Positions 860 to 64,000 of a stretch of DNA of 64,000 nt are shown here, piece by piece. The DNA comes from Rhizaria sp. SCN 62-66 (Eukaryota), in contig MEDY01000022.1 in the NCBI GenBank assembly GCA_001724265.1, positions 1 through 64,000 on the forward strand. The letters run 5' to 3'. A model generated the notes under the pieces. The model had not been told where the DNA came from, searched no databases, and saw only the letters and a program-made list of their open reading frames with translations. The translations under genes were made by a program, and so were the position numbers. Position 1 is the first letter of the stretch. Every line of letters starts with the position of its first letter.

Positions 860-3606
860 TTAGAACACCTCCTCGGGCGGCGCGACGACCTTCTTGCGGG
901 GCATCTTGGGCGGCTTCATGGGCCCCTTCTCCTTTGCGGGCGCGACCGCGAGGACCTTGGCCGAGACGAGGGGCGCGAGGTGCGCCTTGGCCATCACGGC
1001 GGGCTGCACCAGCGTGTCCTCCGTGGGCAGCACCAGCACCTTATTGAAGGCCGCGTAGTGCTCCAGCACCGGCGCGGCCTGCTCAGCAAACGCCTTGATC
1101 GACGCGAGCTGCTGCTCGCGAGGTGCCTGAGGGGAAATAAAAAGAAATGAGCGAAAATGAGGAGAACGAAGTGAGAAACATGTACGATAATAGAAACAAT
1201 ACATAAGCCGTCAAGATCGAAAAAAAGAATGCTTACAGTGCAGGTGTACTCAAATTATGTAATATTAAAAGGACTATCGTGAGACATCTCGCCTTTAGCA
1301 AGAAGACGTACCTGTGAGGACTGCGTGGCGACGAGACGCGTGAGCGCGGCGTCGTCGCTGCACGCGAACGACAGCACGGCCGCGGGGGCGTCGAGCGCCT
1401 GCTCGAACGCGAACGCGTCGTCGAGCGACAGCGGGAACTGCGCCAGCAGCACCGCGCGCGACACACGCACAGTCGCAGCGCCAGTCTTGCCGCCGTTGGC
1501 GGTGTTGTTGTTGGGGACGACGGACTGGCTCTGCAGGATGGCCTGCTGGATCAGCGTGACGACGATGTGCGAGGGCGCGGGCCGGCCCAGCTCACGGTGA
1601 CGCTTGAGCACGCGCCCGCACTCAGTGTGCTGGTCCACCGCGGCCGCCAGCAGCGTCGGCACGTGGATCACGTCGAGGGAGAGCGAGTGTCCCAGCGCCT
1701 CCACGAGCAGGTCCTGGCCCGAGCCGGGACCGCCGATCGACCACAGGATCTTGGGCTTCTTGGCCGAGGCCTTGACCGACACCACCGGCGCCGCGGCCCA
1801 GGGGTCCACCACGACCATGCCCGCGTCGGCCGCGCCGCCCGCGCCGGAGCTGCTAGCGCTGGCGCTGGCGCTGGCGGTGACGCCGACGACGTCGGTGTGG
1901 CTCTTCTGCGGACGCACGGTCACCACGACGCCCTGAGAGGTCGCGGCGGCCTGCGGGAGCCGGCTGCTGCCCGCGGCGGCCGCAGCGGCCTTGGTGCCGG
2001 CGCCGGAGACTGCGACGGCGCCCGCGCGGCCCGTGGCGGCGCGCGGGAGCAGCGCGGGCTGCACTGTCACGGCGGAGCTGCCACTGACCGTGATTCCGTC
2101 CTCGTTGTCGCCGCCGTCGTCGTCGTCGTCGTCGTCGTCCGCGGGCGCGTGCGTGACGGTCATCTGTGGCTTGTTGGGGTTGTTGCGCAGCAGCCAGTTG
2201 ACGAGCCACATGATGGCGTCGTCGCCGACGGGCTTCACCTTGCACAGCGCGGCCAGTCCTTCGCCCAGCACATCCTTGAGCGACTTGGGCACCTCGGCGC
2301 CGGGCCGCACGGGGCCCGCGCGAGCCGTGAGGATCACCTCCACCTCGTCCGCTGTCGGCACGCGCTCCGCGGCCAGGTGCGGGAAGAAGGCCGCGATGTC
2401 CGCGGCGGCCGCGGCGGCGTCAGCCGAGGCGTCGACGGCGTTGCGCAGCGAGTCAGCGCCGAAGCGCGCGCGCAGCGAGCGCGGGGCAAACTTCTGGCCC
2501 GTTGCGGGGTCCGAGGGGCCGACGAGCGCGCGCAGGGATGCGATCGCGGCGGGCTTGGAGAGCAGCACGGCGATCGAGGGGCCGGAGGACATGTACGACA
2601 GCAGGTCAGCGTAGTAGGGCTGGCCCTTGAGGTGCGCGTAGAGCACTTCGCAGCGCGTCTGTGAGAGGTACACGGTGTCCTGCGCCTGAACCTGGAAGCC
2701 GTGCGCGCGGATGGCGTCGAGCATGTGGTGCGCGTGCGGCGCGCCGTCGGGCTTGATCAGCGCGACGGTGCGCTCCAGCGGGAACGGAGCAGGGAACAGC
2801 GCGGCCGCGTCCGACTGCGCGCGGTCCGCCGAGTCCGAGTTGTAGCAGATGTTGTTGAGCAACGAGGTGCCCAGGCGCGCGCGCAGCGTGTAGGGCGCGT
2901 GCACGCGAGCCTCCTCGGGGTCCTGCGGGCCCAGTAGCAGCTTCAGGTCCGCCACGGCGTTGAGCTTTTCCAGCACCAGCGAGATCGACACCTCGGACGC
3001 AAGCAGGTCCGCCTCGGCGGAGCGGATCGCGGCCTCGGCGGGGTCCAGCGGCGCGGCGGCGGCCGAGGGGGCCGCGTCGGGGTCGGCGGCCGCGGCCTCG
3101 GCGGCGGCGGCGGCGGCGGCGGGCGTGACGGCGCCGACGAGGCTCTGTGCGAGGTCGAGCGGCAGCACGCGCGCGGCCTTGCCCAGGACAACGAAATTGT
3201 TCTCCACGAGCGCGTCGAGCACCGTGGTGAGCGTGTCGGGTGCGTAGCCGGGCTTGACGACGACGACGACACGCTCGAGCAGCGGCGTCGGCGGGAAGAG
3301 CAGCTGCTGGTCGCGCAGCGCCAGGAACTGCGTGTGCGTGTAGTAGAGGTCGTCGAGCTGGGGGAAAATCTGGCGCATGGTGTCGAAGGCCTTTTCGCGC
3401 TTGAGCAGGAGCAGCACGACGGGGCCCATGTAGTACAGCTTGGCCTCAGAGTCGGGCACGTTAAGCTTGGCCACCTGCTCGGGCGTCAGCTGCGCCTTGC
3501 GCTTATCCGCGATCAGGAAGCCCTCCTCGGTGAGAATTTCAATGTTCGAGTCGACCACATCGTTCAACACACCCTGTGCGTTGACGATCGCAACAATGGT
3601 CTCCAT
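860..3606 (-). CDS. Multidomain protein: three NDK-like domains + Dpy-30 motif + C-terminal adenylate-kinase-like domain (NME5/RSP23-like, probably ciliary). Exons 3606-1312 and 1126-860, ~853 aa
   Basis: NDK-like repeats (METIVAIVN..., LERVVVVVKPG...LRARLGTSLLNNICY, LERTVALIKPDG...YMSSGP...SLRARFGADSLRNAVD). Dpy-30 motif VLGEGLAALCKVKP...AIMWLVNWLLRNNP. AK-like KILWSIGGPGSGQ...LLAQFP. A phase-0 intron joins the last exon, which ends in TAA. Start uncertain: an acceptor-like TTTACAG near 3615 may link to an upstream exon starting at ATG 4004. Confidence 0.8.
1127..1311 (-). other. Spliceosomal intron (185 nt)
   Basis: CAG|GTACGT...TCAG|GCA; AT-rich; restores the frame of the AK-like domain. 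Confidence 0.85.
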
Positions 3607-4404
3607 TGCGCGGTCTGTAAACAGGTCCAAAGGCGCAGCACAACGTAACAGCAAAATGGGAGTCAAAGTGGGCGACAAAAATGAGGCAAGTTCGTACGGA
3701 TGCAAGGACTCTGTCAAAAAACACGTTTTAAGAACAGCACTAAACAGCATAACTAGTCTCATAAATGGGTGTCATATATTTCACATGCGGTCAATGGGTG
3801 CAGACGAGCGGGTCAAAGTTGAGATGAAAGAGGAGCCGTTACTAGTCGCGGTGGAACACCCAAACATTTTTCGGCCCCGTCGCGTTCGCTGCTTCCGTCC
3901 GCCGCTCGTCGTTCACCAACGCGCCTAACCCGTTCACCACGAATATTTATCGTCTGATCTGTCAAAACATTGGTTTGGAACCATTGGTGGATTGCATTGT
4001 CCATTTTCTATATGAAAAGCATAATTATATCTTGCAGAAAGTTGTATATGTGTCACGATGACTCCTTAAAATCAGCCGACTGATCACTCAGTTCGCCTGA
4101 CACCTTCTCGGCACGTCCAACCGCTCTCACGATCCTCACTTGATTAAATGTCTGAATATCTCGTGTGATCTTCCACGTGTAGCTTAGCTCAGCGCGGTTG
4201 TACCCCAACACAATCTTGTTGGCGCGTGCTGCCCCACTCTCCCGCCCTTATCCCGCCACCACAGCCGAGGTTGCTCGCTGCTGGTGGACGGACTCTCGGT
4301 AACTCCGGCGCCACCGCCTGCGTCCCTCTATCAGCTCACTCCCCGCGTCACATTATCGTTGCACAACGCTTGCTACGTGCCCGCGCTGTCCCGGGACCCG
4401 GACG

Positions 4405-7400
4405 ATGTCGAACCGTGGCCGCGCCGCCGTCGCTGCGGCTCAGCAGAGTGTCACAACACAACAGATGCAGCTGAGCGCGCGTGATCTGGACTCAACGGCA
4501 GCGACAACTGTTACAGCCGCGAGTTTGGTGTCAACCCCTGCGCCGACGACGGTGACTGGGCTGCTCTCGAGCACTGTGGCGCCTGTCGTCTTTGGCCCTT
4601 CACAAGCGTCAACGTCGCAGACTCAGTCATCAGTCCTGTCGTCTGCTGCGATGTCGTCTGCTGCGACATCCGCATCGAGCAGCACTGCTTATCACGGCGA
4701 CACGAGCCGCGACGCTGTTACAGACTATGGCGATCAACGCAGCGACGAGAATAGCGACAACAATGCCTCTGCTGACGACGACGATGACGACGAGCTGATT
4801 ACGTCGCCAACGCCTATCCTCGTCAACCCCTACTCCGTGCTCGCCTCCGGCGCACCGCTCATCACAGTCACCTCCACGCTGAACTCTGCGACGACGATCA
4901 ACCCGCTGACGGGGGCAGCTGCAGCTGCGGCGGCGTATAATCCCATGAACAGCAGCCCCGCAGCGCAGAGGCTGCTGCCTCTGTCCGCATCGGCGTTGTC
5001 TGCGTCTGTGGGGGGTCGAGGGGCTTTGGCGCAGAAGACGGCCGTGGCTGCAGCGGCAGCGGCGGCGGCTGCGTTGGCAAACAGCAGACAGCGCCTTTTG
5101 CTGCCATCAGCTGGGGCAGCGGCGAACGCAGTCAACGATAGTGATCTGAATGAAGATGTATTGTCTGCATCAAATGAAAGATCGGAGTCGCAGTCTCAGT
5201 CTCATGTTCAAGCACGTATCACAGAGGGCAAGAGCAGCACCAGAAGCAGTCTTAGCAGTGACAACAATGACGATAACAGTAATCCCGGCAAGCTCGCGTT
5301 GGTCACTTCTACTCGTTCGTCGGCAGCACAGAACACCACCGAGAGCCACAGGAACAGCAACAGCAGCAGTCTCATGAACGACGGCCCTGACGCCAACGCT
5401 GCCGACGCCAACGACAGCGACGATGACGAAGACTGCGAGCGCCACGTCCTGCGCCGCCTGCCGTCGCCGTCGCGGCAGCCGCTGCGGCCCGCCATCCGCC
5501 CCCTGACGCCCGCGGCGGCGCTGGCATTGCGCCACCGCATCGCGCCCGCGGCCGCTCACCCGGCGCTCGTGGCGCGCGCCAACTACTCGCGGTCGGGCGA
5601 CTCTGACCCGCTGGCGGAGCTGGCGCGCGTGAGCAGGCTCGCCGCAGAGGAGGAGGCCGCGGCGCTCTCGCTCGTCAGCTCCAACGCCAGTCTTATCATC
5701 GGCGCGGGCGCAAGCACGGGCGCTGCCATTGGGGCTGCTAATGTAACGAGTGGTGGTGGCGGGCTTATGGCGATGCTGAATGCGGCTGCGGGTGGCTCTG
5801 GTAGCAGTTTCATCACGGGTGGTGTCCCTTTTATGGGTTCGCCGAGCAACGCCAACGCGGCCGGCTCGGGTGGCAATATGGGCGCTGGTGGCAACACCAG
5901 CGGTGTCGGCGCGGTCGCCGTCGCTGCCGCCGTTGCCGCCGCGGTCGCTGCAGCGGCCAATGCCGGCGTCAGCACCAGCTTCTTCTCGTCGCCAACGAAC
6001 GCGAGCAGCAGCAGCATCAGCAGCAGCAGTAGTGCCGCGGGTGTAGGTGTTAACGCGACGCCGACGACTTACAGCGGCAACGCCGGGAGCCGTGGTTTTG
6101 TGAACATATTCGCCTGTGTCGGAAACAGCAGCATGGACACACCCACAAAGTCTCACGTATCTGCGTCTGCTGCTTCTGTCGCTGCTTCCGTTGCTGCTGC
6201 CTCTGCTGCTGCATCTGCGTTGTCTCGGTCGCAGAGCGCGCGCGTGCCGCTGTCGCGGAGGCCGCTTACGATGACGCCGCCGCGCAGCAACGTGAACACC
6301 AGCAATAACCTGGCAGTTGACCACCTCGCGGCAACCTCTGCGTCGGCTTTCGCTCTAACAGCAACAACAAACGAGAACGTGGGCAACACCGACAGTAGTG
6401 ACAGCGCCTCGGCAGCATCTCCGCCTGAAACAACAGCACTCCTGAACACTGACGCGAGCAACAGCAACGACGACGACAGCAACAGCAGCAGCAGCAGCAG
6501 CAACAGCCGCAACAGCAGCAGCTATGCGATGTCCGACACCGACAGTAGCGGCGCCGCTGCTAGCGTCGCGCACGGTGCGATTGCGCTGGTATCGCTCGCG
6601 GGCGGCGCGGGCGCTGCGGGCCGGCGCGCGCGCGCTGCGCTGATGAAGGAGTCCCCGCTTGCGCGCACCAGCAGCGCGGCGGTCGCGGCGGCGGCGCTGG
6701 GGCTCGGGTTGGGGCAAGGCGCTGGCTCGACTCCGACCGCGGCCGCTGCGACTACAACGGCAGCGACAGGGTTGTTGGGGACGCCGACGAATGTCTTCAG
6801 CAACAGTGCCGAGCTGAGTCACGCCAGGCCTGGTCCAGCTGTGCCGCTGCTCTTTGCGCCCTCCACGCAGCAGCAACATCAGCAACAGCTCAGCACAATG
6901 ATTACGCCAACGCGCGGAGGCCGGTCGACCCAGGCGACGCCGACGTCAGCGCTGACGGCGGCGACCTCCGCTGCGGCTGCTGCTGCCTCTGTCCCGCTGC
7001 CTTTTCTCAACTCGCTCAACAGCTTCGGCAGCCCCCAAACAACATCTGCGCCCACTATGACGACGCCCAGCGCTGTCGTTAACACAAACGTCGTGTTTTT
7101 GTCCGGAGTCGCTGCGACGCCGACGAACACCGGCGGCATCAGGGGTAGCGGGATCTCAGTGCCGCTCTTCTCACCGGCCTCGGGCCGCGAGAGCACCGTG
7201 AACACGGCCAGCACGAGTGCTGCTCTCGGCACCGCTGTGCTGTCGCCCGGTGTGCCCTCGCTGACGTCGACGCCGGTGGCAGCGCTGCCGACGCCGGCCA
7301 ACTCGGCCCCGGTCTCCGTCTCGCGCACCAGCTCCGTCGCTGGGGACGCGGGCTTGAGTGGCGTAAACAGCAGCGCTAGTGTGACATCCGTCGGTGTTGG

Positions 7401-8766
7401 CAGTGGCCATGTGCGGCGCACAGCATCTGGCAATGGGATTGCTGTGCCGACACTGGAGGCGCAGACGTCACAGTCGCTGATGTTGCAACAGCCGCAAATG
7501 CATAGGCAGACGCGCGCGCGCACTCCTGCTGCTGCTGCGGCTGCCGCGGCGGCGGCGGCGGCGGCGGCGGCGACGGCTGCTGCTGCCGCTACGAAAGCAA
7601 CAACTACGCCAACGCGCTATGCTTCTGAGAGCAGCAATGGCGTGACGGCAAATGAAGACGACTCGAGCGTGACTGGTAGCGGCAAGCGTCGTCGCGTTAG
7701 CACGATCAGCTCTAGCCTCAGCGCGCCTGATCTCAACGCGAATGCGTCCGCTTCTGTCGGTGCGTCGACAGTCAATAGCCAGTCGCTGTTCGTATCCCCC
7801 GCCCGTGGCACTGCAGCAGGCGGCCTGACTTCTGGTGCGAACGCTACCGTGACCTTGAACGTCAAAGGCTCTGGTGAAGCTGATGTTCAGCTCCCGAGCC
7901 CTAATTCGAGCGCGAGCGCAGAAGCGAGTGCGAACGGCAGCAACAACACTCGCGGTGTCTCGACTACCGCAGGCGCAGTGCCCGATCTCACTGCAAATGC
8001 AATGAGTGACGCTGTGAACGACGCAAGCTCATCTTCAGCGAGTTATACTGTGAGTGCGAGTGCTGGCGGTATAAACAGTACGCCGTTGTCCCGCTCCGAC
8101 ACAATGCCTATTCCCCTCGCAGTCTCAATCTCGCCGCCACCCCAGGCCACCGCGCCCGCGGCGTCGCGCTCCGGGGGCCGCTCGGTGCGCTTTGACATGA
8201 CGCTTAACGAAGTGTTCTACGTCTCTAGCACCTCTTGGAGCGCCAATCCTTTGATCAATGTCACCGTTCCTAGCGCTGTTGCCGGTGCGACATCTCGAAC
8301 CATTGCAGATCCTGCTGCGCCAATTGTTGCTGACTCGGGTGTGTCAACGCTGCGCCCGCCTGTCACGGCATCCGTCGCACACTTCGCGTCGCTTTCAACC
8401 ACGGCAACAACAGCGGCGCCCGGCGAAGAGCGCGAGTGCGTGATGACGGCGTCGCTGTCGCGGGACGCGGCGCGGTCTGACCCGTCGACGTCGCCGCTGC
8501 TGGCCGCGCTGCGGGCCACGGGCACGGGCGTGGCTGCAGCGGCAACCGCGAATATCAGGAACAAGATCAACAACAGCGACGGCAAGAGCAGCATGGGCAG
8601 CCCAACTGCGACTCAAAGTGGAGGCAATTCTAGTAATACTGCTGGTGATGGCACAGTGAGTTCCCTCGATCTCATTGCGACTGAGACAGAACTCGCCGGG
8701 TCATCTGCGCCTAGCGTGAGCAGCAGTGCTTCTAGATCGCGGGGAGCAGCCGCCGTTGCCGCAGCC

Positions 8767-8832
<66 letters not shown>

Positions 8833-11316
8833 GCCACGGTTGCAACTGCGGCGGCTGAGAGCGCAGCAGCAACAAAGCCTGTGAGTGTTGAATCAAGCGA
8901 AAGCAGAGGCAGCGCTGGCCAGTTGGCCAACGCAGCAGTCGCGTCATTTCCGCCGTATCCAGCAGCATCGGCAGCAGCGCAGGCCGCTGCGACGGAGAGC
9001 GGCGACGCTGCCAGTATGCGGTCGTCGTCGGCGCCGGCGTCTCCGCTGCGCTCGCCGCCGCCGCTGCCCGCACCCTCGCGGCCCATGCCTGCCTCGGTAT
9101 CGTCGCCCTCACGCGCGCTCTCGTTCGGCGCATCGCCTTTCGCTGCGGTCCCCAACACCGCTAACGTTAACTCGAACAGCGTCTCTGGTGCGAATGGGCT
9201 CGCCCGTGCCGCCTCTGCTGCCGCTGCTACCGCTGCTCAGCCGGTCAGCAGCCCCACCAGCGGCGCCGAGGCCGTTGAAGTTACACCGAACTTCCGCCCC
9301 GTGTCGCCGGCCATCTTCCTCCGCCGCGCGCGCCAGATGTCGTTCGTGCAGCGCCCGCGCGTGGTTATTGCGCTGTCATCGTTCAACCGCCACTACGGCC
9401 ACCTGTCCGCGCACGACAACACACCCACGCCATTCATCGACTACGCCGACAACGATACGCGCGGCGCAGGCAGCAGCACGGGCGTGAGCCGCACTGCAAC
9501 GGGTGCGCACAGCGGCGGCACTGCTGACGAGTCTGTCGCAGGACAGGGACGCGTTGGACTAACGCGTTCTACGAGCATCAATCTCGGGAACGCGCGCAGC
9601 AGTGATTATTGCAGTAGCAGCAGCAACGCTGGGCCAGTTTCTTCGGCGGCCTTGCTTACGACTGCTGCCACGCCGCCCCCGTACGGAGCTGTCTCTGTGC
9701 CGCTGCAACTGCGTCCGCAGTCGCCCAAACCTGTTGATAAAGCGGCGCCGCGCAGTCCTGTCCGTGTCAACAGCAGCAGCTCCAGCACGCAGTCGCTTGC
9801 TGCGAGTCCCGCTCGCGCCCGCAAGCAAGCACTTGCAGCCTCTCGTTTATGTGACCTCAACTCTGACGCCAGTGCCACTGCTGGCACCGGTGGAGCGAGT
9901 CCGCGCGCGAGTGTGATGGATGCCAGTGCCAGTGCCAGTGCGGCGCTCAGTGCGCCGGCCCCGCGCCGCTCTGCGCGGACCGGTGTCGGAGCGCTTATGC
10001 CGCGGCGCAATGGGAGCGACCTCGACTCGTTCCCTGACCCCGCTGCTTTGCTTGCGGCGTCCGTCGGCCGGTATGCGAGCGAGCCGCTTTCGCCGTCTCG
10101 CTCGACTGTCAATACAAACACGGGCAACAGCAATAGCAGTACCAGTGGCAATGGCAACAATGTCAGTCAGACGAATGGTGGAACCTCTGCAGCGACTGTG
10201 GGTAATGCGGAAGACGATGGCGGCGACTCAACACCTGTTATAACGCGCTCTCGTGACGCGGTTAGCGGCGACGGCAACACCGCACGCGCGAAACTTGTAT
10301 TCTCTGATGCTGACCATGGTGGTAACACAAAGAGTGCGACTGCTACTGCTGCAACTGAGAACGCTGCATCAACGGGCCCTACACCCTCGCCGTACCGCAT
10401 GCGTCTGTTCCAGTCTGCATCGTTCACTCTCGGCTCGACGACCGCGCCTCCTCTGACTGTCTCTGCAACCGCATCAACCTCGTCTTCATCGTCGTCATCG
10501 TTGCCGCTATTATTTGGACAGTCTCAGTCTTCATTGATTGCAGCTGCGCCATCGTCAGCATCGATGCCGCTGTTTCTGTCGTCCTCGTCGTCGATGTCCC
10601 CGGCCTCTGTCAAGATGTTCCTGCTGGGAGGCAACGCCGGTGTCGCCACCAGCAGTCTGGGCAACGGTTTCGGAGGTGTGCGGACACCGCCAGCGTGCAT
10701 GGTAAGCTTGGGCAGCATGAGCAGCGCGAGCAAGAAGGTCCCCGTCCCCATGATCGACAATGATAACGACGCTGACGACTACAACGACACGGATGACGCG
10801 GGAAACAACAGCAACAGCAGCAGTGAAAGCATGGGTGACAAAGGCGATGGACGCCTTCCTAGAAAGGATGTTGGTGACGACTAGACTGAAAGCAAGAGCT
10901 GCGGGGTTGTGACTGCCGCTATGGATGATCACGATGATCAAGACTATGCCTCAAGTCGCTTCACAGCAGTCGGCAAATCTGCCGTGCTTTCGTCGCCGCC
11001 GCCCTTGCAGAGCGTGAACACGCTGATCTCGCCGCTCGCTCTTGCGTCACCTGTCTCTGTGCCCTCAACTGCAGCAGCAGCAGCAGCAATGTCAGCAGCG
11101 ACAATGACAACTCCCTCGGCGCCGAATACGTCCTACGACAAGGGCGTACAAAAGAAGTTCAGTGGCCCCGCCGGTCGTGCCGCTGCCGCAGTCGCTGCCG
11201 CTGCAGCAGAAGCAGCCGCAACGTCCGCAGCGTCGACTGCAGCAGCAACTGATACTGCCACTGTCGGTGTCATCAGCAATATCGGCAAGGACGTCGGCGA
11301 CGATCGGCGTCCTTAA
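4405..11316 (+). CDS. Large low-complexity Ser/Ala/Thr/Asn-rich, probably disordered protein (~2303 aa if the in-frame TAG at 10882-10884 is read as sense)
   Basis: The 2159-codon ORF continues in the same frame after one TAG for 143 more codons of similar composition to TAA at 11314-11316, after which the DNA turns AT-rich. Contains an RVxF-like motif (RSVRF). No globular family recognised. Confidence 0.7.
8770..8823 (+). repeat. (GCT)18 trinucleotide repeat encoding poly-Ala
   Basis: Perfect GCT run read directly from the sequence. Confidence 0.95.
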
Positions 11317-11727
11317 ACACGTGTACAGCTTGAAATAGTTAAATTATTTTGCTACCTAGAACTCCCCCAATACAGCTTTGATTCTTTATCGCGTGTTCAT
11401 GTGAATCAACAATACCAGCCTATCAATCGTTCACATATTTTGATTCATAATTGTTTTGTAAATATCATTTCTGGCGTTTTATATTTTTCATACTCAAACA
11501 TTTGGCACAGATAATGAAAATGAGGAAAAACGAAAACATAGTGAATAATGTTCAATTTTGTATTTCACGTAAAGAGATTTAATATTTAAATGCATAAATA
11601 GACAAGCAAACAATATCATAATATTTCTCTCCAATCCCTCAATATATCCCGTCAAAAGTTCACATAATGATAAAAACAAAGTTGGTATAAACCTCCTTCA
11701 GCCTAGTTTTTGTTTTGACTGACTTGC

Positions 11728-14047: not shown

Positions 14048-15370
14048 TCAGATGCGGATGGCGTAGTTGCCGTTCCTGGTGAGGTAGCGGACCCACTTGA
14101 CGGCCTCGTACTGGCTGCGCTCAACGACCTTAAGGAAGCGCACGCGTAGCCCCGACGACGTGAACATAGGCACGTTGAACTCGAGCGTGATGGGCGGCCT
14201 CGACCACACTTTGTCCTCGACCGACGCCGCGATGATGGCTTCACCGCGCAGCGTGTAGATGCCGTTGCCCGCAAAGCGCGGGATCTTCCACTGCAGCGCG
14301 TTGAGCAGCGGCTTGTACTTGCCGCGGCCCGTCGAGACCTTGGCGCTGCCGCTGGCCGTATTGGGCGGCGTCGGGATTAGCATGCGCACGTTGGCGGCGA
14401 CGAGGTTGGGGTCGAAGTTGCCCTTGATCGTGATCTCGTACTCGATGCGCGAGCGGCCGCGCACGATGATCGACGGGGACACGGTGAAGGGCAGCAGGAT
14501 GTTGTTGGTGATGCGGTACTTCATGAGCGTGAACTCGCCGTCGGGCGGCACGAACGACACCGTGCGGTCGTGGTCGAACTGCGCCAGCGACACGCAGCGG
14601 TGGAACGTCACGTCGTCTATGGCGACACTCGTCTTGCGGCCCTGGCCGCGCATGCCCGCGGCGGCGCGGCGGTCCGACTCCTTGTCCATGAGCAGCTTGT
14701 CGTTGAGGCCGAACTTGCACTCGGGCATGCCGCTGAGGTACGTCTTCATCTGGATCTTGCCCGAGACGTCGGAGCGCAGCACGGTGCCGTCGGCCGACAT
14801 GAGCACGTTCACGGCCTCCAGCACGTCCATGTACACCTCGTTGGTCTTGTAGAAGTGCTTGTTGGGCTCGCGCCAGTCGACGCCACCGGTGATGAAGCTG
14901 GTGATCTTGTCCATGCCGTGCTGAGTCGCGCCCGCGCCCAGCTCGCCGGAGCCCTTGACGGAGCCGAGCGAAATGGCAGACTTGAGGTGGTTGATCGCCG
15001 TGAGCTGCGGGTAGCCGTGGTCCATCATCTCGTCCAGGAGCTCGTAGATGAGGACGAAGTTGCTGCGGCAGCCCTCCTCGGTGAACTTGGTGCCGAAGTA
15101 GGCCGAGAAGACGTTGATGAGCGCGATGATGAACTCAAACGCGATCATCGGGTTCGCGTTGAGGCGCGTGGCAGCAACGATGAACATGTCGTTCTGGCGC
15201 GTGTACATGAAGGAAGCGCCGTCGATGTTGACCACGGGCGTGGCGTTGACGAGCCCCGCGAGGACCTGCTGGCGGAAGGCGTCGACGGCCGTGGTGGGGA
15301 TGTCGTCGCGGAAGAACCGCTGGATGACAATCTCACCCTTGAGATTGACAAACAGGATGGCACTGAGCAT
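14048..15370 (-). CDS. AP2M1: AP-2 complex mu (medium) subunit, 440 aa, intronless CDS
   Basis: N-terminal longin-like NLKGEIVIQRFFRDDI, NFVLIYELLDEMMDHGYPQ, LSGMPECKFGLNDK, DDVTFHRCV, SFVPPDGEFTLMKYR, WSRPPITLEFNVPMFTSSGLRVRFLKV, KWVRY. The WSRPPI and FRDDI motifs fit mu2 best. TGA stop. Confidence 0.92.
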   Translation of the reverse strand: MLSAILFVNLKGEIVIQRFFRDDIPTTAVDAFRQQVLAGLVNATPVVNIDGASFMYTRQNDMFIVAATRLNANPMIAFEFIIALINVFSAYFGTKFTEEGCRSNFVLIYELLDEMMDHGYPQLTAINHLKSAISLGSVKGSGELGAGATQHGMDKITSFITGGVDWREPNKHFYKTNEVYMDVLEAVNVLMSADGTVLRSDVSGKIQMKTYLSGMPECKFGLNDKLLMDKESDRRAAAGMRGQGRKTSVAIDDVTFHRCVSLAQFDHDRTVSFVPPDGEFTLMKYRITNNILLPFTVSPSIIVRGRSRIEYEITIKGNFDPNLVAANVRMLIPTPPNTASGSAKVSTGRGKYKPLLNALQWKIPRFAGNGIYTLRGEAIIAASVEDKVWSRPPITLEFNVPMFTSSGLRVRFLKVVERSQYEAVKWVRYLTRNGNYAIRI

Positions 15371-16372: not shown

Positions 16373-17239
16373 TTAAGATGTCTTGGAAACACTTGTGACA
16401 GCGGTCGCTTTGCCGCGACTGCTCTTGGCCCTCGTTGTGACGCCCACACACATATCTTGTGCATTATCATCAACAAAACGCTGTGCGCTATCACACAACG
16501 CAGTATGGGAGCTTACGATAAGTGTCTTAGTACTCTGCTGTGAAGCTGAAGCAGAGTGATTGCGAGCTGTTTGCTGTTCTGGCGGCAGGTTGTACAGAAT
16601 GCGGTTCACGACCGACAGCGGGACTTGGTACGCGTTCGCGATCGAGCGGTCGTCCACAGCACCACCGTCAGCAGCGTCGTCGTCATCGCTGTAGTCGCAA
16701 TGTGCGCTAGTGTTTGTGGAGTTGGCAGAACGTGCTGAGTCGAGCGCGCGCGCGACAGAGGCGACGCGGGCGGCTTCTTTGACGTCCCAGTGCGTCCGGA
16801 GAACGCTAGAGGTGTCCGCAATCGTCGTCAGAGAGGTCGCGGGGTAAGTGTTGGCAAGGTTGAACGCGATGTAGCCAAACAACATTGCAAGAATGGTGGC
16901 AATTAGCCAGCTCAGACCTGCAACAATCCAATACCTGGTCAGGACGAGACAAAATGGCATATAAAGTGGGTAAGACATCACTTCTTGTACAATTCAAAAA
17001 CACGAGATCAGATTAATCAACTTGCATTACATGTTCGATTGATGGGTCACATGTTATGAACGACTTGATACGTACTTGTCTGGGTAGAAAGTGAAGCCGA
17101 GTTGGCGGAGAGTTGAGTCTGGAAGATAGGCCACCGCCATGATGCAGAACCAGGCGATGATCACAGAGACGCGCAGAACGAATCCGCACACTTCAACCGA
17201 CAGGTGTCCATCTTTTGGCTGGCGCGCGGGTTTGGCCAT
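16373..17239 (-). CDS. PIGP: GPI-GlcNAc transferase subunit PIG-P/Gpi19. Exons 17239-17076 and 16934-16373, ~241 aa
   Basis: Spliced product EVCGFV...AYLPDSTLRQLGFTFYPDK|YW...FNLANTYPATSLTTIAD...VPLSVVNRILY matches the PIG-P pattern (two TM helices, YP-x-KYW, VNRILY). TAA stop. Confidence 0.88.
16935..17075 (-). other. Spliceosomal intron (141 nt)
   Basis: AA|GTACGT...CCAG|G; restores the conserved PDKYW motif. Confidence 0.9.
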
Positions 17240-17638: not shown

Positions 17639-17718
17639 ATGTCTCAGCCCCCGTTGGGTTCCCGCGATGCGGCGAGCGTCACCCTCCCGGGCATCCACGC
17701 CCGCCGCTCCGCTGCCTC

Positions 17719-17753
<35 letters not shown>

Positions 17754-20700
17754 CGGGCTTCTCGCACTCCGCGCGTCTCCCCTCTGGCTCCCCGGCCGCG
17801 CGCGCCCCGGCTATCGCTGCCCCGCTGACCGCGCGCCTCGCCCCCGCCACCGCCTCAGCTGCCACCTACAGCGCCAGCAGCGGGCCCACGCATCCACCCG
17901 GCGCGTTCGGCTCCACCTACGACACGGGCGCCGCGCCGTTCCGCGCCATGCCGCGGTCTGCGCCGGAGAACTTCACGCCGCTGGCGCCGCTGCCGGCCGG
18001 CTACACGGGCAATCAGCCGCCCGCGTCGCGCGTCTCGCTGGTTGACGGCCAGGCCGCGCACAGCAACAACCAGGCCCAGATCGAGCACGCGCGCCAGCAG
18101 AGGCACGCCGCCACCGCGGGGCCCGGCCAGGCGCCGCTGCCGGCCTCCCCGCGCCGGCCCTACGCGCTCGCGCCGGGGCCCAACACGCTCGGCCCCGCGG
18201 GCGCTGTGCCGCCCTCGCTCGCAGCCACGGTGAACCAGAGCTCTAGTTCGAGCTCTAGCTCCGGCTCCGGCGCTGGTCTCAGCGCGAATGACGCCGCTGC
18301 GGTCGCGGCGCGCTCCCCGCACGCGTTGGCCGCGGCGTCTCGCATCGGGATTATTCCGCCCGCCGCGCCGGGCTCGGCCAAGGCGCTGCCGCTGGTCTTC
18401 TTCTTGCTGGGCGGCCCCGGCGCAGGCACTAACTCGGCCGCGCGCGCGCTCGCGCAGCAGTACGCGCTCACGCCGGTGTCCGCGCTGGACTTGCTGCTGG
18501 CCGAGCGCGCCACGGGCTCCCCCGCTGGCGCGCTTATCGCGCGTGCGCTGAACCTGCCGCTGGTGCGCAAGGCTGGCGACCACGGCAACAGCAACAGCAA
18601 TGGCGGCGATACCGGCTCTGATGCCTCGGGCAGCGGCAGCGGTAGAGCCGACGGCGCGACGACGGCGACGCTCAGCGGTGCCGACGGCGCCGCCGCGTCC
18701 TATGGCGACGGCAGCGGCGGCAGCGGCAGCACCAGCGGCGTGCGCGTGACCGAGGCGGCCGCCGTCGCGCCGTGCGTCACCACAGGGCTGGTGCCAGCCG
18801 ACATCACGCTCTGTCTGCTGCAGCGCGTGCTGGATCACCACGTCTCGCACGGGCGCACCGCGTTCCTTGTCACGGGCTTCCCGCTCTCGGTGGGCGACTG
18901 GGAGGCCTGGGCGCTCGCCACCAAGGGCTACTGCAACGTCGGCGGCGTCATCTACCTCGACATGCCGCTGCAGGCGCAGTTCGACCGCCTGCGCGCCGCG
19001 CTCGACGACGCGCGCCAGGAGTGCGCAATCACGGTTCCGAAAAAGTCCTCCGCCACGCAGCAGCAGCCCCCTGCGATCACCAACGCGTCCTCGTCCTCGT
19101 CCGCGGTCCCGGGGGCTGGTTCCCTGTCCTCCGCCGCCGCCGCTGAGGCCGCCGCGGGCGCCGCCATCTCGAGCGGCGCCTCAGTGCGCGGCGGCGGTGC
19201 GGGCTGGGGCTCTACGCCGGCCCCCGCGACGGTCTACGGCACGCGCCGCCGCCCAGGCTCGCCCTCGCTCTCCGGCGACGCCGGCGCGGGCGCGGGCGCC
19301 GCGGGGGCCCGGTCCACGGCGCTGACGGTGCCTGCTGACGTCAACGCCAACGCGGCCGAGCACGCGCGGCTGCGGTCGCGCAAAGTCTTCGTGCTGGACG
19401 AGGACGCCGTCGACGCTGCGCTGCGCCTGCACGCCACGCACGGGCTGCGGCTGCGCGACGTCTTCATCGCCGCGGGCCGCCTCAAGCGCGTTGACGCCAC
19501 GCTGTCCTCCGCGGACATGGCTGAGGCGTTCCGCGCCCACCTGGCGCCGTTCCCGTCGCTGGCGCTGCCCTTCGCGGGGGCCGGCGGCGCGCGCGGGGCC
19601 GCAGGCGGCGGCGCGCTGCTGCCCTGGCAGGGCGCTGCCAAGCCCGTGCTTGTGCTCCTCACGGGCGGACCCGGCGCGGGCGTCACGACCGTGGCGCGTC
19701 GCATCATGGCTAAGTACCGCTTCGTCGACGTCGACGTTGCGGCGCTGGTGCGGGAGCATACCGCGGCCACCGCCAACACCGCTCGTGGCCCTGGCGCCGG
19801 CGGCAACAACAACAACTCCAAGGACGGCTTGACCGCGCGCAGCAGCAGCAAAGGCAATTCCGGTGCTAACGACAAGGCCGAGAAGGACAAGACCTCTCGC
19901 TTTGGCAAGTCTCTTCCTGCCGAGGTCGTTGTTTCGCTGTTGCAGTCCTTCATCGAGGAGGAGCTCGCGCGCCGCAGCCACGCACAGCACTTCCTCCTCC
20001 GCGGTTTCCCCCAGAACCTCGCCAGTCTGGACGTGTTCGAGGCCGCCCTGGGCGACAAGGTCGACATCAAGCTCGTCATCTTCCTCGACTGCCCCGAGGC
20101 CACGCGCAAGCGCCGGCTGATGGCCGCCGCGGCCGAGCGCGCGCACACGCAGTCGCAGCTCCAGGCACAGTCGCAGGCGAGTCTGACGGCGCAGGGCTCC
20201 ACGGGCGCGCTCGGCGCGACGCGGCGCAGCTTCCACCACAGCAACAGCGCGGCGTCGGTCTCGCCCGCCGTGCTGGAGCACCGCGCGCTGGCTCAGGCCG
20301 AGGCCAAGGTGTCGGCCAAGTGCCAGCGCTTCCTGCTGGCGACGATGCCGCTGATCGAGGAGATGGAGGCGCGCGGCGTCGTCCAGTCCGTCAGCGCGTC
20401 GCCCGCCGAGAAGGACGTGTGGCGCGACGTCGACCGCCTCCTGCTAGCGCGCTTCCCGCACATGCGCAAGTTTGCCTTCGCCATCCCCGCCGCGCTCGCG
20501 CCCAGCAAGCTGCACTACGTGCCCGTCAACCCCGGCACTGCGTCTGCCGCGGCCGCGTCGGCCGATAAGCACTCCGGCGTCGTCGTCGCCTCTTCGCCCA
20601 CCGCCTCTGGCTTTGCGAGTGCTGACCCGAGCGCGGCGGCGGGCGCGGGCACTGAGATGGTTGTCTACAACTCTCCGTCTAACGCCAGCGCTAATGGTGT

Positions 20701-58122: not shown

Positions 58123-61100
58123 TCACTTGCGGATGTTGGACCAGAGCGAATTCTGAGGCGCGCTCTTGATGAGTTGATCCGACGGGCGCGGCGTCTTAGC
58201 TGCCGTTGCATCCGCCTTAGCAGCGCCAGCTGCGTTCGCAGGACGCTTCTTAGCCTTGTTCAGCAGCGCCACTGATGACTGAATGGCGTTGTCGGCCTGC
58301 GCAAGAAGAGCAAGGTGCTCCTAAGAGAGACCGGCGCCGACAGCAGTGTGTTGTTGATGCTGTTGTGGTTGTTGTTGTGCGGTAACATGAGCATTGCCAG
58401 TCGCGAGAGAGCTCGAGTTCAGGTGAGGCTGAGCGGCGGCGTGCATCGAGTGCGCCGCGGGGTCGTATAAGTACGAGTGCGAGTGCTCAGCGTCGTCGTA
58501 CACGCTGTTGAAACCGCCGTTGCTGCTATCGATCGCAGTGTGGCTCTGAGCGGCGAGGGCGGCAGCTTCCTCATGCTCCCACTGCTCCTGCTGGGTGTTG
58601 TATTGACGACCATCGGCAGCGTAGTACTGGCCGTGGCCGTGCTCGTCGCTACCGTAGTCGTCGTCGTTGTAGTCACCAGAGACGTCGTTGATGTTGTCGA
58701 CACCAGCGTGAGCTGACTCAGCGAAACGAACACGAAACGCGCTCGCGTCCGCAATGTTGCCACTGGTCGCAGTCATGCCAGGAGGATAGTATTCCTCGTT
58801 TTCGTCCTCGCCATTGTAGTTGTCAGCATCAACACCATCGTACTGATCATAGTCATCGCCGTTTTTGTTGTAGTCGTTGACGCGGACAGGGCTGTGGCGC
58901 TGCGTCGCGATTGCGCGCTGCAGGATCATCGCATCAGCCATTGCCTCAGCCTCCGCGTCCGCCGCGTCAGCAGCCTCCGCGTTTGCGGCGACAGCGGCGA
59001 TCGCGGCCTGCTCGTAGTCGTACTCGTCTTCGTCCTCCACAGTGGCGTCGCCAGCATCGCCAGCGTGACCCTGCTCTTGCTCGTCGTGGCCATACGGGTC
59101 ATGGTTGTAGTCGTTGCCATATGCATCAGGTGCAGCGTGCCCATTGACGTTGTTGCGGTTGATGTTGTAGTCGTAGTGGTGGATGCTGTCACGCTCGTCG
59201 CCGCCGTCGTCATTGTCACCTTCAACGCCGTCATCGTGGTTGTTGGTGTTAAAAACGACATCGCTATCGACATTGGCGGCGTCAGAGTAAGGGTCGTAGC
59301 TGAAACCATCTTCGACAGCAGCAGTGGGCACAGTCAGAAGGTCATGCTGACGTTGCCGCTGAACCTGATGTTGCTGGTAAGAAAAAGAAGCTTCCTGAGC
59401 AGAAAGTACACCATTTTTGTTGTCGTTATGAGCGACACCGCTGTGGCTCGAGTCGGCAACGCCTTCAACAGCTCTAACAACGCCGCCGTGCTGCATGCTC
59501 GCGTTCGCGCTGTGGTTGCCCGATGCGCTCGAGCTGAACACACTCGCGTTCGCGTTATCAACAGCAGTGACCTGACTATTGTTGGCACTAGCGCCGTTGG
59601 AGTGAATGCCATCGTCAGTGATGGCGCCATGAGAAAGGTTATTGGCTCTCACTTTCCAGTACCCCAGTCCACTCCGTTCAGCGTCACCGACCGAGTCATC
59701 CGAGTCGTTCGTTCCATGCACCGCTGCGGCGTGCGACACAACAGGAACGGCGTTCGCGGCGTCAGTGTGACGATCGCTTGCCTAAGGCCTGCGGGACACG
59801 TTGGTGTTGTTCTCAGCCGTCGCGTTGGCGTCATCATCGAACCCGAGTTGCCGGCGCAAGTTCGCGATCGCGCTTGTGTGACCCCGCGCGTTGACCGGAG
59901 ACCAGCCTGCATAGCCCGTCGCGCTGTTGCCGTTCGCGCTCAAGCTCGTGGTCGCGCTCGTGGTCGAAGTGGCGACCTGTACGCGCACGAGCTCACGTCC
60001 CGCGACGCCCGCCCTGACCGCGTCGGGATGCAGTGGCGCGCGGTCGGCGACGCCGGCCAGCACAGCGACGGGGTCGACGGTGATGCCCACGTCGGGCACC
60101 GCGCGCTCCGCGTAGAAGGTGCGGCCAGCGTTCGCCTTGTGCTGCGGCGACGCGAGGTACGTCTTGGTGAACTCGCGCTGGCTTGACGGAAGCACGGCGT
60201 GCGCGTTGGCCCCACCTGAGGCCGCGGCGGAGGCGGCAACGGCGAGAGGAACGCCCGTGGCGGCGGCGATGTCGGCGACCTTGCGCTTCTGCTGCAGCGA
60301 AGTTGATCCCGTGTAGAACGGAGGCTTGCTGCCGCTGCCGCTGGCATTAGCAGATGCGCGAGCGTGGGGCGAGCGCGAGCGGGAGTTCGACTGCGTCGAC
60401 TGCGACTGCGAGCGGGAGCGGGTCTGCGACCGCGAGCGCGACTGCGAGCGCGAGCGCGAGGTGCGCACGCGGGAGCTTTTGACCAGATCATACACCGCGT
60501 CACCAGCGTTGCTACTCGCAGCAGCGGCGGCCGCGTTGGCGGCGGCGACGTCAGCCTCGTAGGAGCGGCCCAGAGCGACGGGCGTGTGCTCACGCTGCGT
60601 CGGCGGGCGGTACACTGCGCCAGTAGGTGACACGACGAGGTTGCCCACGCGGGACGACGACGACGACGGGGACATCGCGCTACCCGCAGCAGCGGCAGCG
60701 GTGGCGGCAGAGCGGGGGGAAACGACGTCAACGGTGAGCTTGTCGTTCATTGCAATGCGGACGCTGCTGGGGCTACCGCCTGCAGCGGCATTGCTGCCGT
60801 ATGACGCCGCGGGGATGCGAGGCAGGTAGTGACTGCTGCTACTACCACTAGAGATGTTGTTCTCGTCGGCACCGGGGACGTACTCCGCGTAGTCAGCCTG
60901 CGCCCACTGGCCGTGCGCGGCGGCGGGGCCAGGCACGGTCGCGACGGGCTGGTTGCGCTTGAGCTGGTTCTGGGCGATGTACACGTCGACGACGTCCTCG
61001 CGCTCGCCGTCGTTGGCAGCAGAAGCGGCGGTGGATGTGTTAAGACTGTTGTTCATCAGCATACTCGCATCACGCGCGTTGCCGGAGACGAGGTGGATGC

Positions 61101-64000
61101 GCGAGTGCGACACATCGTGCTGCTGCTGGTGTCGCTGAGTCGCGATGCTGGTGTCGATGTTGCTGACAGTGTAGTGGTCTGAGGTGCGGCGAGGCGCGGC
61201 ACCGGCGGCGGCGGCGGACGCGGCGAGACTCGCGTTCGGCGAGGCGCCCAGGCCGACGATCTCGCCGTTGCTCGCGGTGGCACGGGCAGAGGGCAGCGGG
61301 GACGTGAGGTTGTTCGCAGCCCCCTTGGTGCCACTGCGAGCTGTGTTGCTCTGAGGGGAGGCGGCGGCGGCCGAAAGCGAATACTTATTGACGCGGCCGT
61401 CGGTGTGCTCGATGATGACGTCGACGTTGCGGCCCTCGGTGTCAACAAAGTCGTCCGTGTTGATGACCACGTGCGCGCTGACCGACTCGGCAGCGACGCG
61501 GGTGTCATCAGCGCCGCGCGTGTTGCTGCTGGCAGCGGGAGCGCGAGAGTAGTTCATGGCGCTCACGTTGTTGCGGCTATTGCCGTTCATGTGGCCGTGA
61601 GCCAATGTCGACACCCACTGTGACACACCGAGATCGTCAGCGTCGACGTTCGTCGTCGCATTCACGGCGCCGAACGTGACGTTGCCGTCCGCGCCCGCGT
61701 GCATCGCCGCGCCACCCGGCAGCACTGTGGCGAAGATGTCGTCGAGCGGAGCCAGCCCGCGCTGCGCCAGCACCACGGGCGGCGCCATGTCGTTGTTCAC
61801 CTTAGCCACGTACACCAGCTCCGTCTCGAAGCGCTCGATCGCGGCCGTGAAGGCGTTCGGGTCGTCGCCAGCGGTTGCCTCGACGACGGCCTTGAACAGG
61901 CGGCCAAGACGCTCGGTGGCTCCGTTGAGCGCGCGCGTGAGCTTGTGACTGGCGCGGTACGCTACGGAGAGGCGGTCGCGCTGCTCACGGAAAGCAGCGG
62001 CGCGCTCACGCTCAGCCTCAGCCGCGGCCTCAGCGGCGCCGGCGCGGGCGTTCACGACTTCCTCGACGCGCGCAGAGCGTGCGATGGCGAGCTGCGCCTC
62101 GTTCTCGATCGCGCGCGCGCGGGCCTCCCCGTCAGCCTCTGCGCGGCGCGTGCGCTCCTCGCTGTGTGCGAGCACCTCCGCGCTCTGCGCTTGCTCGGAT
62201 GCGATCCGGGAGCCAGCGCGCTTGACGTCGGCCTCGGCGGCCGCGAGCGCCTGCTGCAGCAGCTCGATCGCGCCCTCGCGCTTGGCCAGCATCGCGCGCA
62301 CGGCCTCCAGCTCGGCGCGCGCGCGGTGCCCGGCCTCGGCGTGGTCGCTGCGCAGCGCCTCAACGAACGTGGCATGCTGCGCCTGCGCGTCCCGCAGCGC
62401 GGCGGCCGAGTCCAGTGCGAGCCGCTCCAACCGCGCGGCCTCGTCGTCGCGCGCAGAGTCTGCGCGGGTCTCCCACACGCGCTTCTGGTCGACCAGCTCC
62501 CTCGTCAGCGTCTCGACGCGCGTGTCGGCGGCCGCGGCGGCCTCGGTGGCCTGCGCAAGCCGCGTGCGCAGTTGCGCCTGGTCGGCCTCCATCTTGGCGC
62601 GGCGCTGCTCCTCCTGCGCCAGCTTGCCGCGCGTCTCGGCCGCCTCGGCGCGCGCGGCAGTGAGCTTGCCCTCGAACGCGGCAGCGTCGGCGCTCGCGGC
62701 CGCCGCGTCTGAACGCGCCTCCGCGACAGCGTGGCGTAGGCGCGTTGCCTCGTCGTCGCTGTTGGCGCGGGCGTGTGCGTCAATGCGAGCGCGCACTTCA
62801 GCAGCCGCGGCGAGCTCCTTCGCGGCCTGTGTGGCGGCGGCGGCGGCAGCGGCGTCGGCAAGTGCGGCGTCGAGCTTGCTCTGCATTGCGCGCACGGCGG
62901 CGCGCTCGCGCTCGAGCCCGGCGCGCGTGTCTTCGTGCGCGGCCTCCGCGGTCGCCACAGCGCGGCGCCAGGTGACCGCGGCCTCCGCCACGGCGGCCTC
63001 GCCGCGCGCGCGCTCCTCGGCCAAGGACTCGGCGAGGCGGTCGCGCTCGCGCCGGGCCTCCTCAGCGGCGGCCTGCGCGCGGCGCAGCTCCTGCAGGTGA
63101 GCGCGCGCAGCGGCGTCGGCGGTGTCGCGCGCCTCCTTGGTGGCGTCCTGCGCGCGCGCGTGCGCCTCCGTCTCGCAACGGCGCACCGACTCCTGCGCGG
63201 CGCGCAATGCGGCCTCAGCGGTCTCAGCGCGAGCGGTGGCGTCGGCCGCGCGGCGCAGCGCGTCGTCACAGCGGCGCTCAGCATCAGCCGCGGCGTCCGC
63301 GCGCTGGCGCTCCGAGCCCTCCTTGACTGCGGCGAGGCGCGCGGCGGCATCGGCGGCGGCGCGCGTAGCCAGGTCGAGCTTCTCCTGCATGTGCGCGACG
63401 GCTGTGGCGGCGTCAGCGGCTGCGGCGTCGACCTTGGCCTGCCACGCCTTCTCGCGCGCGCCCGTCGCAAGCGCGCTGCGCTGGCCCTCGGCCGCTGCGG
63501 CGCCCAGCGCGGCCGACAGCTCGGCGCGCAGAGTCTCTTGTGCGACCGAGCCCTGCGTCAGCAGCACGTCCTTGGTCCGGATCTCGGCCAGCGCCGAGTC
63601 AAGCTGCGCCTGCATCTGCGTGCGCGTCTGCGCCAGCGCCACGGTGGTATCGCCGAGCTGCTTCTTAAGCTCCTCACTGGCGCTCTGAAGGGCGGACATA
63701 CGGCGCTCGTGGCCCTCCGCCTCGCTGCTCTTGCGCTGGCGCTCGGCAGTCTCGGTCGCGAGCAGCGCTTCAAGCTCACGGACGCGCGTCTCGTGCTGCG
63801 CGCGCGTTTCCTTAAAGCGCGCGGCGGCCTTCTCGGCGGCGGCCTTGGCCTTGGCGACCTCGTCCTCGGAGGCCACCGCGCGCGCAACAGCGCTCTCGGC
63901 CTCGGCAGTCAGGCGCGCGAGCTCGGCCTTGACGGCGCGGTCGCAGCGGTCCACGTCAGCGCGCGCCTGCGCCGCGGCCTGCGCGCGCTCGTGCTCCAGC
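58123..64000 (-). CDS. Large Ala/Glu/Arg-rich coiled-coil protein with a disordered acidic C-terminal half; 5'-partial, >1950 aa, containing two in-frame TAG codons (59782-59784 and 58321-58323)
   Basis: The frame is open from the window end. ORFs 59782-63954 and 58321-59739 share a frame and are separated only by TAG. After the second TAG, 65 more codons (EHLALLAQADNAIQSSVALLNKAKKRP...SLWSNIRK) run to TGA at 58123-58125, followed by AT-rich DNA. Confidence 0.75.

Follow-up and report, generated by a model that had tools for sequence, protein, structure and literature searches.

The stretch of DNA analysed here (64,000 nt, hereafter the window; positions 1 to 64,000 of contig MEDY01000022.1, assembly GCA_001724265.1, Rhizaria sp. 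SCN 62-66) contains two long genes whose reading frames are interrupted by TAG codons and remain open beyond them. Gene 1, on the plus strand, runs into a TAG at 10882-10884 (TAG1), set in the context GGT GAC GAC TAG ACT GAA AGC AAG. The 143 codons that follow (tail 1, 10885-11313) lie in the frame of 4405-10884, hold no stop, and lead to a TAA at 11314-11316, the next in-frame stop of the open reading frame (ORF). Gene 2, on the minus strand, is interrupted twice in frame (TAG2 and TAG3) before it reaches a TGA. These TAGs and the coding-like sequence in frame behind them are seen directly in the DNA (Table 1), and thus far an original prediction, made from the letters alone, described the locus correctly, including the other locus on the opposite strand. 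It went further and proposed a genome-wide reassignment of UAG in place of gene-specific readthrough or pseudogenisation.

Table 1. Features of the two TAG-interrupted genes, contigs covering TAG1, and introns recognised in the window (GC3, G+C content at third codon positions)
Feature	Position	Strand	Remarks
Gene 1 main ORF	4405..10881	+	2159 codons; Ser/Ala/Thr-rich, low complexity, no Pfam family; GC3 0.67
KDVGDD copy 1	10864..10881	+	AAG GAT GTT GGT GAC GAC; abuts TAG1
TAG1, in frame	10882..10884	+	No change in the DNA contigs (three studies) or in one contig of poly(A)-RNA
Tail 1	10885..11313	+	143 open codons, coding-like in frame 0
KDVGDD copy 2	11287..11304	+	AAG GAC GTC GGC GAC GAT; then RRP and final stop
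Gene 1 final stop TAA	11314..11316	+	
AT-rich spacer	11317..11727		GC 0.31; between convergent gene 1 and epimerase-like gene
Contigs over TAG1	X2 9000-11085; X4 9731-11175; X6 10870-11020; X7 10800-11008		X7 is poly(A)-RNA
Gene 2 main ORF	59785..63999	-	At least 1405 codons, runs off window; coiled-coil, then low complexity; GC3 0.85
TAG2, in frame	59782..59784	-	GC3 step exactly here
Tail 2A	58324..59781	-	486 open codons; Asp/Asn/His/Tyr-rich; coding-like in frame 0 from first codon
TAG3, in frame	58321..58323	-	
Tail 2B	58126..58320	-	65 open codons, coding-like (+24.8)
Gene 2 final stop TGA	58123..58125	-	AT-rich sequence immediately after
BOP1 intron	47921-48121	+	201 nt; donor GTACGT
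SF3B1 5′-end intron	57635-57508	-	128 nt; donor GTCCGT; after 19-nt first exon from ATG 57654

All three in-frame TAGs are followed by stop-free runs (143, 486, and 65 codons), whereas after 10 genuine TAA or TGA stops in the window the next in-frame stop arrives within 1-86 codons, with a median of about 12. For tail 1, only a fraction of 0.00985 of 20,000 mononucleotide shuffles stayed open in frame 0, each of the remaining five frames carries 4-5 stops, and a codon model trained on the window genes favours frame 0 by 20-99 log units, so the open frame after TAG1 exceeds chance expectation. The log-odds of coding over non-coding in frame 0 are positive in each third of this tail (+9.8, +17.5, and +27.6), and every post-TAG segment in both genes is scored as coding in frame 0 (+9.8 to +40.8), beginning at the first codon after the TAG. 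None of 11 control stretches of 143 codons taken after TAA or TGA stops was positive in its gene's own frame (-23 to -155), a comparison tempered by the presence of these stretches in the training regions of the non-coding model. Ten of the 11 were negative in all three frames, and the eleventh, behind the gene denoted ADKx7, scored positive in one frame alone, that of the gene which begins 210 nt farther on. Base composition marks the same boundary: GC content drops from 0.60 in tail 1 to 0.31 in the 411 bases past its TAA (11317-11727), in line with the AT-rich spacer already noted there, and it falls to 0.31-0.41 only past a final TAA or TGA. Taken together, the 694 tail codons contain no TAA, no TGA, and no loss of frame, and they retain periodicity and coding log-odds.

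Such tails might be separate downstream genes that share the frame of their neighbour by chance, and ATG-started ORFs do occur within them (for example 58321..59496, 391 aa), with the GC3 of tail 2 (tails 2A and 2B) matching that of the low-GC3 class of genes in the window. This explanation is very improbable, given that each tail scores as coding from its very first codon. The stretch of 95 codons that separates TAG2 from the nearest downstream ATG scores +37.7 in frame 0, compared with -19.7 and -73.7 in the other frames, which argues against a separate downstream gene. Moreover, the ORFs are not set apart by an AT-rich spacer as the other genes of the window are, the frame would have to agree by chance three times over, and the problem would recur at the end of tail 2A, where another TAG precedes coding-like sequence.

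The final stops of the 12 genes in the window are TAA in eight and TGA in four, with none ending in TAG (a small sample, in which TAG1 and TAG2 are not counted as ends), and four further ORFs without a family match likewise end in TAA or TGA. In-frame TAGs number three in 16,737 codons and are confined to two of the 12 genes. An origin in sequencing or assembly error, in an intron that removes the TAG, or in RNA editing is hardly credible, as four runs, belonging to three studies dated 2016-2025, have contigs that cover TAG1 with no differences and no gaps. One of these contigs, that of poly(A)-RNA, spans 82 nt before and 124 nt after TAG1 and is collinear, unspliced, and unedited, and nothing resembling the 128- and 201-nt introns of the window is found around the TAGs, where local GC content is 0.50-0.68. 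Splicing or sequencing error at TAG1, which the original prediction had named as possible refutations, thus finds no counterpart in these data. The RNA contigs of the same run miss 11106-11316 and, as contig data, are uninformative on where the transcript ends.

Close to TAG1, in the region corresponding to a CAG/CAA repeat at 10806-10823, foreign contigs in two of the runs (X4 and X2) carry strings such as ...CAC CTG TAG CAC CAG CAG.... Here a TAG may stand within a glutamine-codon repeat, a possible lead to the residue that UAG would encode; the consensus agreement there is only 0.64.

Programmed readthrough, familiar from viruses and some cellular genes, involves either a UAG-CARYYA type of context or a UAG with a downstream pseudoknot, and like the arrangement described here it yields a C-terminally extended isoform by way of a UAG. 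If cis-acting signals of this kind operated at the three sites, with UAG otherwise a normal stop, nested isoforms would account for two further features, a step in GC3 at TAG2 and a duplicated C-terminal motif at TAG1, which are described below. Such gene-specific readthrough is nevertheless unlikely, and markedly so, to judge from the sequence around the TAGs. The bases in the +4 position are A, G, and G, as had been noted earlier, and the three contexts (UAG-ACUGAA, UAG-GCAAGC, and UAG-GAGCAC) are unrelated hexamers with no CARYYA type among them. The 120 nt past the TAGs fold with z-scores of -1.99, +1.52, and -0.48, with a structure that is neither common to them nor clearly stable, and tails of 143-551 codons, together with as many as three sites within two genes out of 12 neighbours, go far beyond what is usual for programmed readthrough.

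A more serious competitor holds that UAG is an ordinary, efficient stop, that truncating TAGs have become fixed in both genes, and that the tails are untranslated remnants which have yet to decay. Between 67 and 74% of single-step nonsense mutations at this codon usage yield TAG, so that the probability of three of three interruptions being TAG is 0.29-0.41 under simple nonsense mutation, and the all-TAG pattern is weak as evidence for any special role of the codon. Long, disordered orphan proteins may tolerate the loss of a C-terminus, the TAGs stand near 3′ ends, and the 551 codons that follow TAG2 hold a single additional stop, which suits a small neutral divergence. Set against this, truncation has to strike two of 12 genes, one of them twice, without a frameshift, TAA, or TGA in the 694 tail codons, which amounts to an unusual load of fresh nonsense mutations, and the TAG state is fixed in samples of three studies across about ten years.

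The composition of tail 2 bears on the same question. Its GC3 is 0.64, compared with 0.81-0.93 over the preceding 1400 codons, while GC1 (the same measure at first codon positions) stays at 0.67 and the frame is intact. In simulations of neutral decay, bringing GC3 from 0.82 down to 0.64 left about 13 in-frame stops, and none of 300 runs ended with one stop or fewer, the observed number being one. Tail 2 is therefore not a decayed dead tail, and its frame is being maintained. Since decay would have left those stops, an account by truncation has to treat the drop in GC3 exactly at TAG2 as coincidental, and the same holds for the peptide in front of TAG1, whose placement before a new nonsense codon would be a coincidence of about 1 in 2154 positions. 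Truncation is on these grounds fairly unlikely. The earlier rejection of pseudogenisation holds to the extent that a decayed tail is excluded for gene 2; a very recent truncation is possible, if fairly unlikely.

Several features suggest that UAG still terminates in part. The first is the GC3 step at TAG2, where GC3 is 0.83 in the 30 codons before and 0.63 in the 30 after, and where the counts of codons ending in G or C versus A or T change from 404/90 to 304/175 (Fisher p 1.7e-10), with the drop present within nearly every amino-acid class. The corresponding drop in gene 1 is smaller (p 0.003 when compared with the gene as a whole, 0.09 with only the neighbouring 143 codons). A lower flux of ribosomes past a leaky stop would weaken codon selection and thereby lower GC3 downstream. 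The second is the hexapeptide KDVGDD, which immediately precedes TAG1 and recurs within the last nine residues of the long form. Four of its six codons differ between the two copies, all synonymously; among 2153 other positions of gene 1, not one has its six preceding residues repeated at the end of the protein, and KDVGDD arose in none of 5000 shuffles of tail 1. The repetition gives the impression that the short and the long isoform alike require this C-terminus. The third is position, the TAGs standing at 0.94, at most 0.72, and 0.97 of the length of their ORFs. The GC3 step, the placement of KDVGDD, and the late positions thus suggest a UAG that has remained partly a terminator, even if these observations are post hoc and each could be coincidence.

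Beside these features, the tripeptide RRP, with its proline encoded by the rare codon CCT, stands directly before both the TAA of gene 1 (11305-11316, +) and TAG2 (59782-59793, -), and a shared C-terminal or termination-context feature is possible.

A clean and complete reassignment, in which UAG would be a rare, non-preferred 62nd sense codon that never terminates, agrees with the absence of TAG from the ends of the 12 genes, with the use of both UAA and UGA as stops, and with the lack of a context or structure common to the three sites. All three TAGs moreover lie in sequence of weak codon bias (GC3 0.55-0.67), which recalls the sainouroid exLh, whose UAG codons are concentrated in weakly biased genes (PMC5304391). 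What this explanation leaves without a reason is the GC3 step exactly at TAG2, the C-terminal hexapeptide directly before TAG1, and the location of all three TAGs in the last 30% of their ORFs. Against it stands, too, that TAG is absent from the conserved genes (about 11,900 codons) and from the 2159 codons with which gene 1 begins. It is possible, if somewhat unlikely.

With the ambiguous and the clean forms combined, UAG is probably translated through in trans in this organism, and a genome-wide reassignment is plausible. Ribosomes would not terminate efficiently at UAG, which would instead specify an amino acid, delivered presumably by a tRNA whose anticodon is CUA; gene 1 would give a product of 2303 residues reaching the TAA at 11314-11316, and the product of gene 2 would run through two UAGs to the TGA at 58125-58123. 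Taken together, the GC3, KDVGDD, and position signs make an ambiguous or leaky UAG, acting in trans and organism-wide, the preferred form over a clean sense codon, and it is put forward tentatively. Some ribosomes would then stop at UAG while the rest continued, giving nested short and long isoforms. A narrower proposal, that this uncultured and GC-rich eukaryote of wastewater reactors, on a deep branch, stands at an ambiguous intermediate stage of reassignment in which UAG alone is part stop and part amino acid across the organism, is conceivable and rather doubtful. Nested isoforms would in that case be under selection at both ends, as the same peptide before UAG and before UAA and the relaxed codon bias after UAG would have it. 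Translation across the TAGs, its organism-wide scope, and partial termination are what we infer from the codons and tails themselves.

Several points weigh against translation of UAG in trans. The evidence base comprises three codons in two fast-evolving, low-complexity orphan genes, and a codon signature, an open frame, and a repeated motif would all persist for a while after a recent truncation. The RNA contig over TAG1 establishes only that the site is retained in RNA; a 3′ untranslated region would look alike, and the library could contain DNA. The nine genes recognised by Pfam, of about 11,900 codons in all, are free of TAG, and hence no alignment sets a UAG against a residue of a conserved protein. 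The window holds no tRNA gene by ARAGORN and no eRF1 gene among its genes, and no orthologue of either C-terminal region, be it a tail or the sequence ahead of it, came to light in the databases searched. The proposal of genome-wide reassignment accordingly keeps its observed components, namely the in-frame coding-like tails, a second gene affected twice, and no TAG ends among 12 genes, and its genome-wide scope is plausible. In the same way, the dismissal of gene-specific readthrough is upheld as regards the known contexts and RNA structures, which are absent, while the effect in trans that it implied is probable, the evidence being three codons of two orphan genes.

The searches behind the last of these negatives differed between the two genes. 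Word-indexed searches with the C-terminus of gene 1 returned nothing at E ≤ 0.001 or at E ≤ 0.01, with candidate lists full of low-complexity sequence. For gene 2, the last 1150 residues were put through a full HMMER scan, which recovered two fragments of the same gene and nothing else, the database entries for its tail being separate pieces of 336 and 49 residues. A scan of metagenomes with the neighbouring epimerase-like gene recovered one 2.2-kb contig of a relative (L001, 67% identity). There the epimerase-like gene (L001:194-1561) has TAA as its stop, and the 650 nt behind it are T-rich and non-coding, with no gene 1 orthologue among them. Relatives of the lineage therefore exist in public metagenomes, on short contigs. 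Prokaryote genomes, scanned for SF3B1, AP-mu, and BOP1, revealed no eukaryotic contamination by this lineage, the sole match (Colwellia) being spurious.

The remaining content of the window is eukaryotic, with genes for SF3B1, BOP1, an AP-complex mu subunit, PIG-P, and a MIF4G protein. It also encodes a fusion of NDK, Dpy-30, and adenylate kinase (ADK) domains (1255-3762, -) and a pair of proteins, each some 3100 residues long, in which adenylate-kinase domains are repeated. These giants are neighbours on the plus strand, the first of 3121 aa (17639-27004) with seven adenylate-kinase stretches matched and the second of 3091 aa (27214-36489) with at least one plus several P-loops. Together with the NDK-Dpy-30-ADK fusion they look, by their domain content, like flagellar or axonemal proteins. 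Sequence near-identical to this metagenomic contig is carried by bioreactor, wastewater, activated-sludge, and microbial-fuel-cell runs from nine studies.

Across the window, GC-rich coding sequence (GC3 up to 0.94) alternates with AT-rich spacers, and the genes fall into two GC3 classes (compare 14048-15370 with 50630-53077). GC3 is 0.85-0.94 in the NDK fusion, epimerase, AP-mu, both ADK giants, MIF4G, BOP1, SF3B1, and the body of gene 2, and 0.55-0.67 in gene 1, an 815-aa orphan, PIG-P, and the tails after the TAGs; sequence of the low class contains or borders all three TAGs. Recognisable introns number two, in BOP1 and at the 5′ end of SF3B1, and both are of the GT..AG type and pyrimidine-rich, with the donor GTNCGT. 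PIG-P (16373-16993, -) probably has an extra upstream exon, as its Pfam match begins only at profile position 41. A region of about 3 kb (43600-46600) stands out by low GC content (0.36-0.47) and strong purine skew, with a GC skew of +0.27 and an AT skew of +0.27 within 44001-46000; it contains no Pfam match and no convincing ORF. A repeat search of the window found low-complexity codon repeats only.

The affinity of the organism was approached through SF3B1 (53900-57654, -), which shares 81% identity with one metagenomic protein and 62-66% with all others listed. It is equally distant (62-66%) from plants, animals, Amoebozoa, and Rhizaria, and among sequences that carry a name, its nearest include Mataza, Amorphochlora, and Paulinella, all of them Rhizaria. 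In a tree of 35 SF3B1 sequences, assembled without alveolates, stramenopiles, excavates, and fungi, the window protein and its 81% relative share a very long branch; the split that leaves them on one side with Rhizaria and unnamed sequences, and plants, animals, and Amoebozoa on the other, has a support of 99 by the Shimodaira-Hasegawa-like approximate likelihood-ratio test (SH-aLRT). Matches in the ESM Atlas resolve to 'Eukaryota' only. The unusual divergence of SF3B1 fits what would be expected of a reduced spliceosome in an intron-poor organism. A rhizarian affinity is no more than a lead.

To our knowledge, nuclear codes in which UAG and UAA differ in meaning are confined to a handful of lineages, mostly AT-rich ciliates. 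No account of UAG recoding in a GC-rich eukaryote from wastewater turned up in a literature search, supplements aside. Reassignment of UAG alone is described in the rhizarian sainouroid exLh (UAG = Leu) and in Iotanema spirale (UAG = Gln) (PMC5304391), and also in phyllopharyngean ciliates, Protocruzia, and Scotinosphaera (PMC11687900). Because exLh reads UAG as leucine (PMC5304391), a rhizarian affinity would be of interest. The window resembles these systems in having UAG within ORFs, UAA and UGA as terminators, and no gene seen to end in UAG (PMC5304391, PMC11687900). It departs from them in number, as they contain hundreds of UAGs, many at conserved residues, from which the amino acid was read off, whereas there are three here and none lies in a conserved gene, and also in the placement of the TAGs near 3′ ends, the signs of partial termination, and the GC-rich genome (PMC5304391, PMC11687900).

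Ambiguous codes, in which a codon is both stop and sense, are known from Condylostoma magnum and Parduczia (PMC4967479), from karyorelict ciliates (bioRxiv 10.1101/2022.04.12.488043), and, for UAA, from Blastocrithidia nonstop (PMC12153298). Common to those codes and to the preferred reading of the window, that of a UAG which is leaky or ambiguous in trans, is a single codon that would serve both as sense codon and as terminator, a dual role suggested here by codon bias and a C-terminal motif. In Condylostoma, Parduczia, the karyorelicts, and Blastocrithidia, sense use is frequent all along genes and termination is tied to the 3′ end of the mRNA; in the window, by contrast, UAG alone is concerned and is very rare (three in 16,737 codons).

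The window is thus a probable further instance of an already known phenomenon, the translation or reassignment of UAG. For annotation, gene callers that assume the standard code will truncate or split the proteins of this organism, as the 336- and 49-residue pieces of the gene 2 tail illustrate. For the evolution of the code, a case in a GC-rich, intron-poor eukaryote without a close sequenced relative would add an independent origin, and its GC-rich setting would bear on the role of low GC content in such changes. If UAG is still partly a terminator, the organism would allow direct study of the "ambiguous intermediate" route to reassignment.

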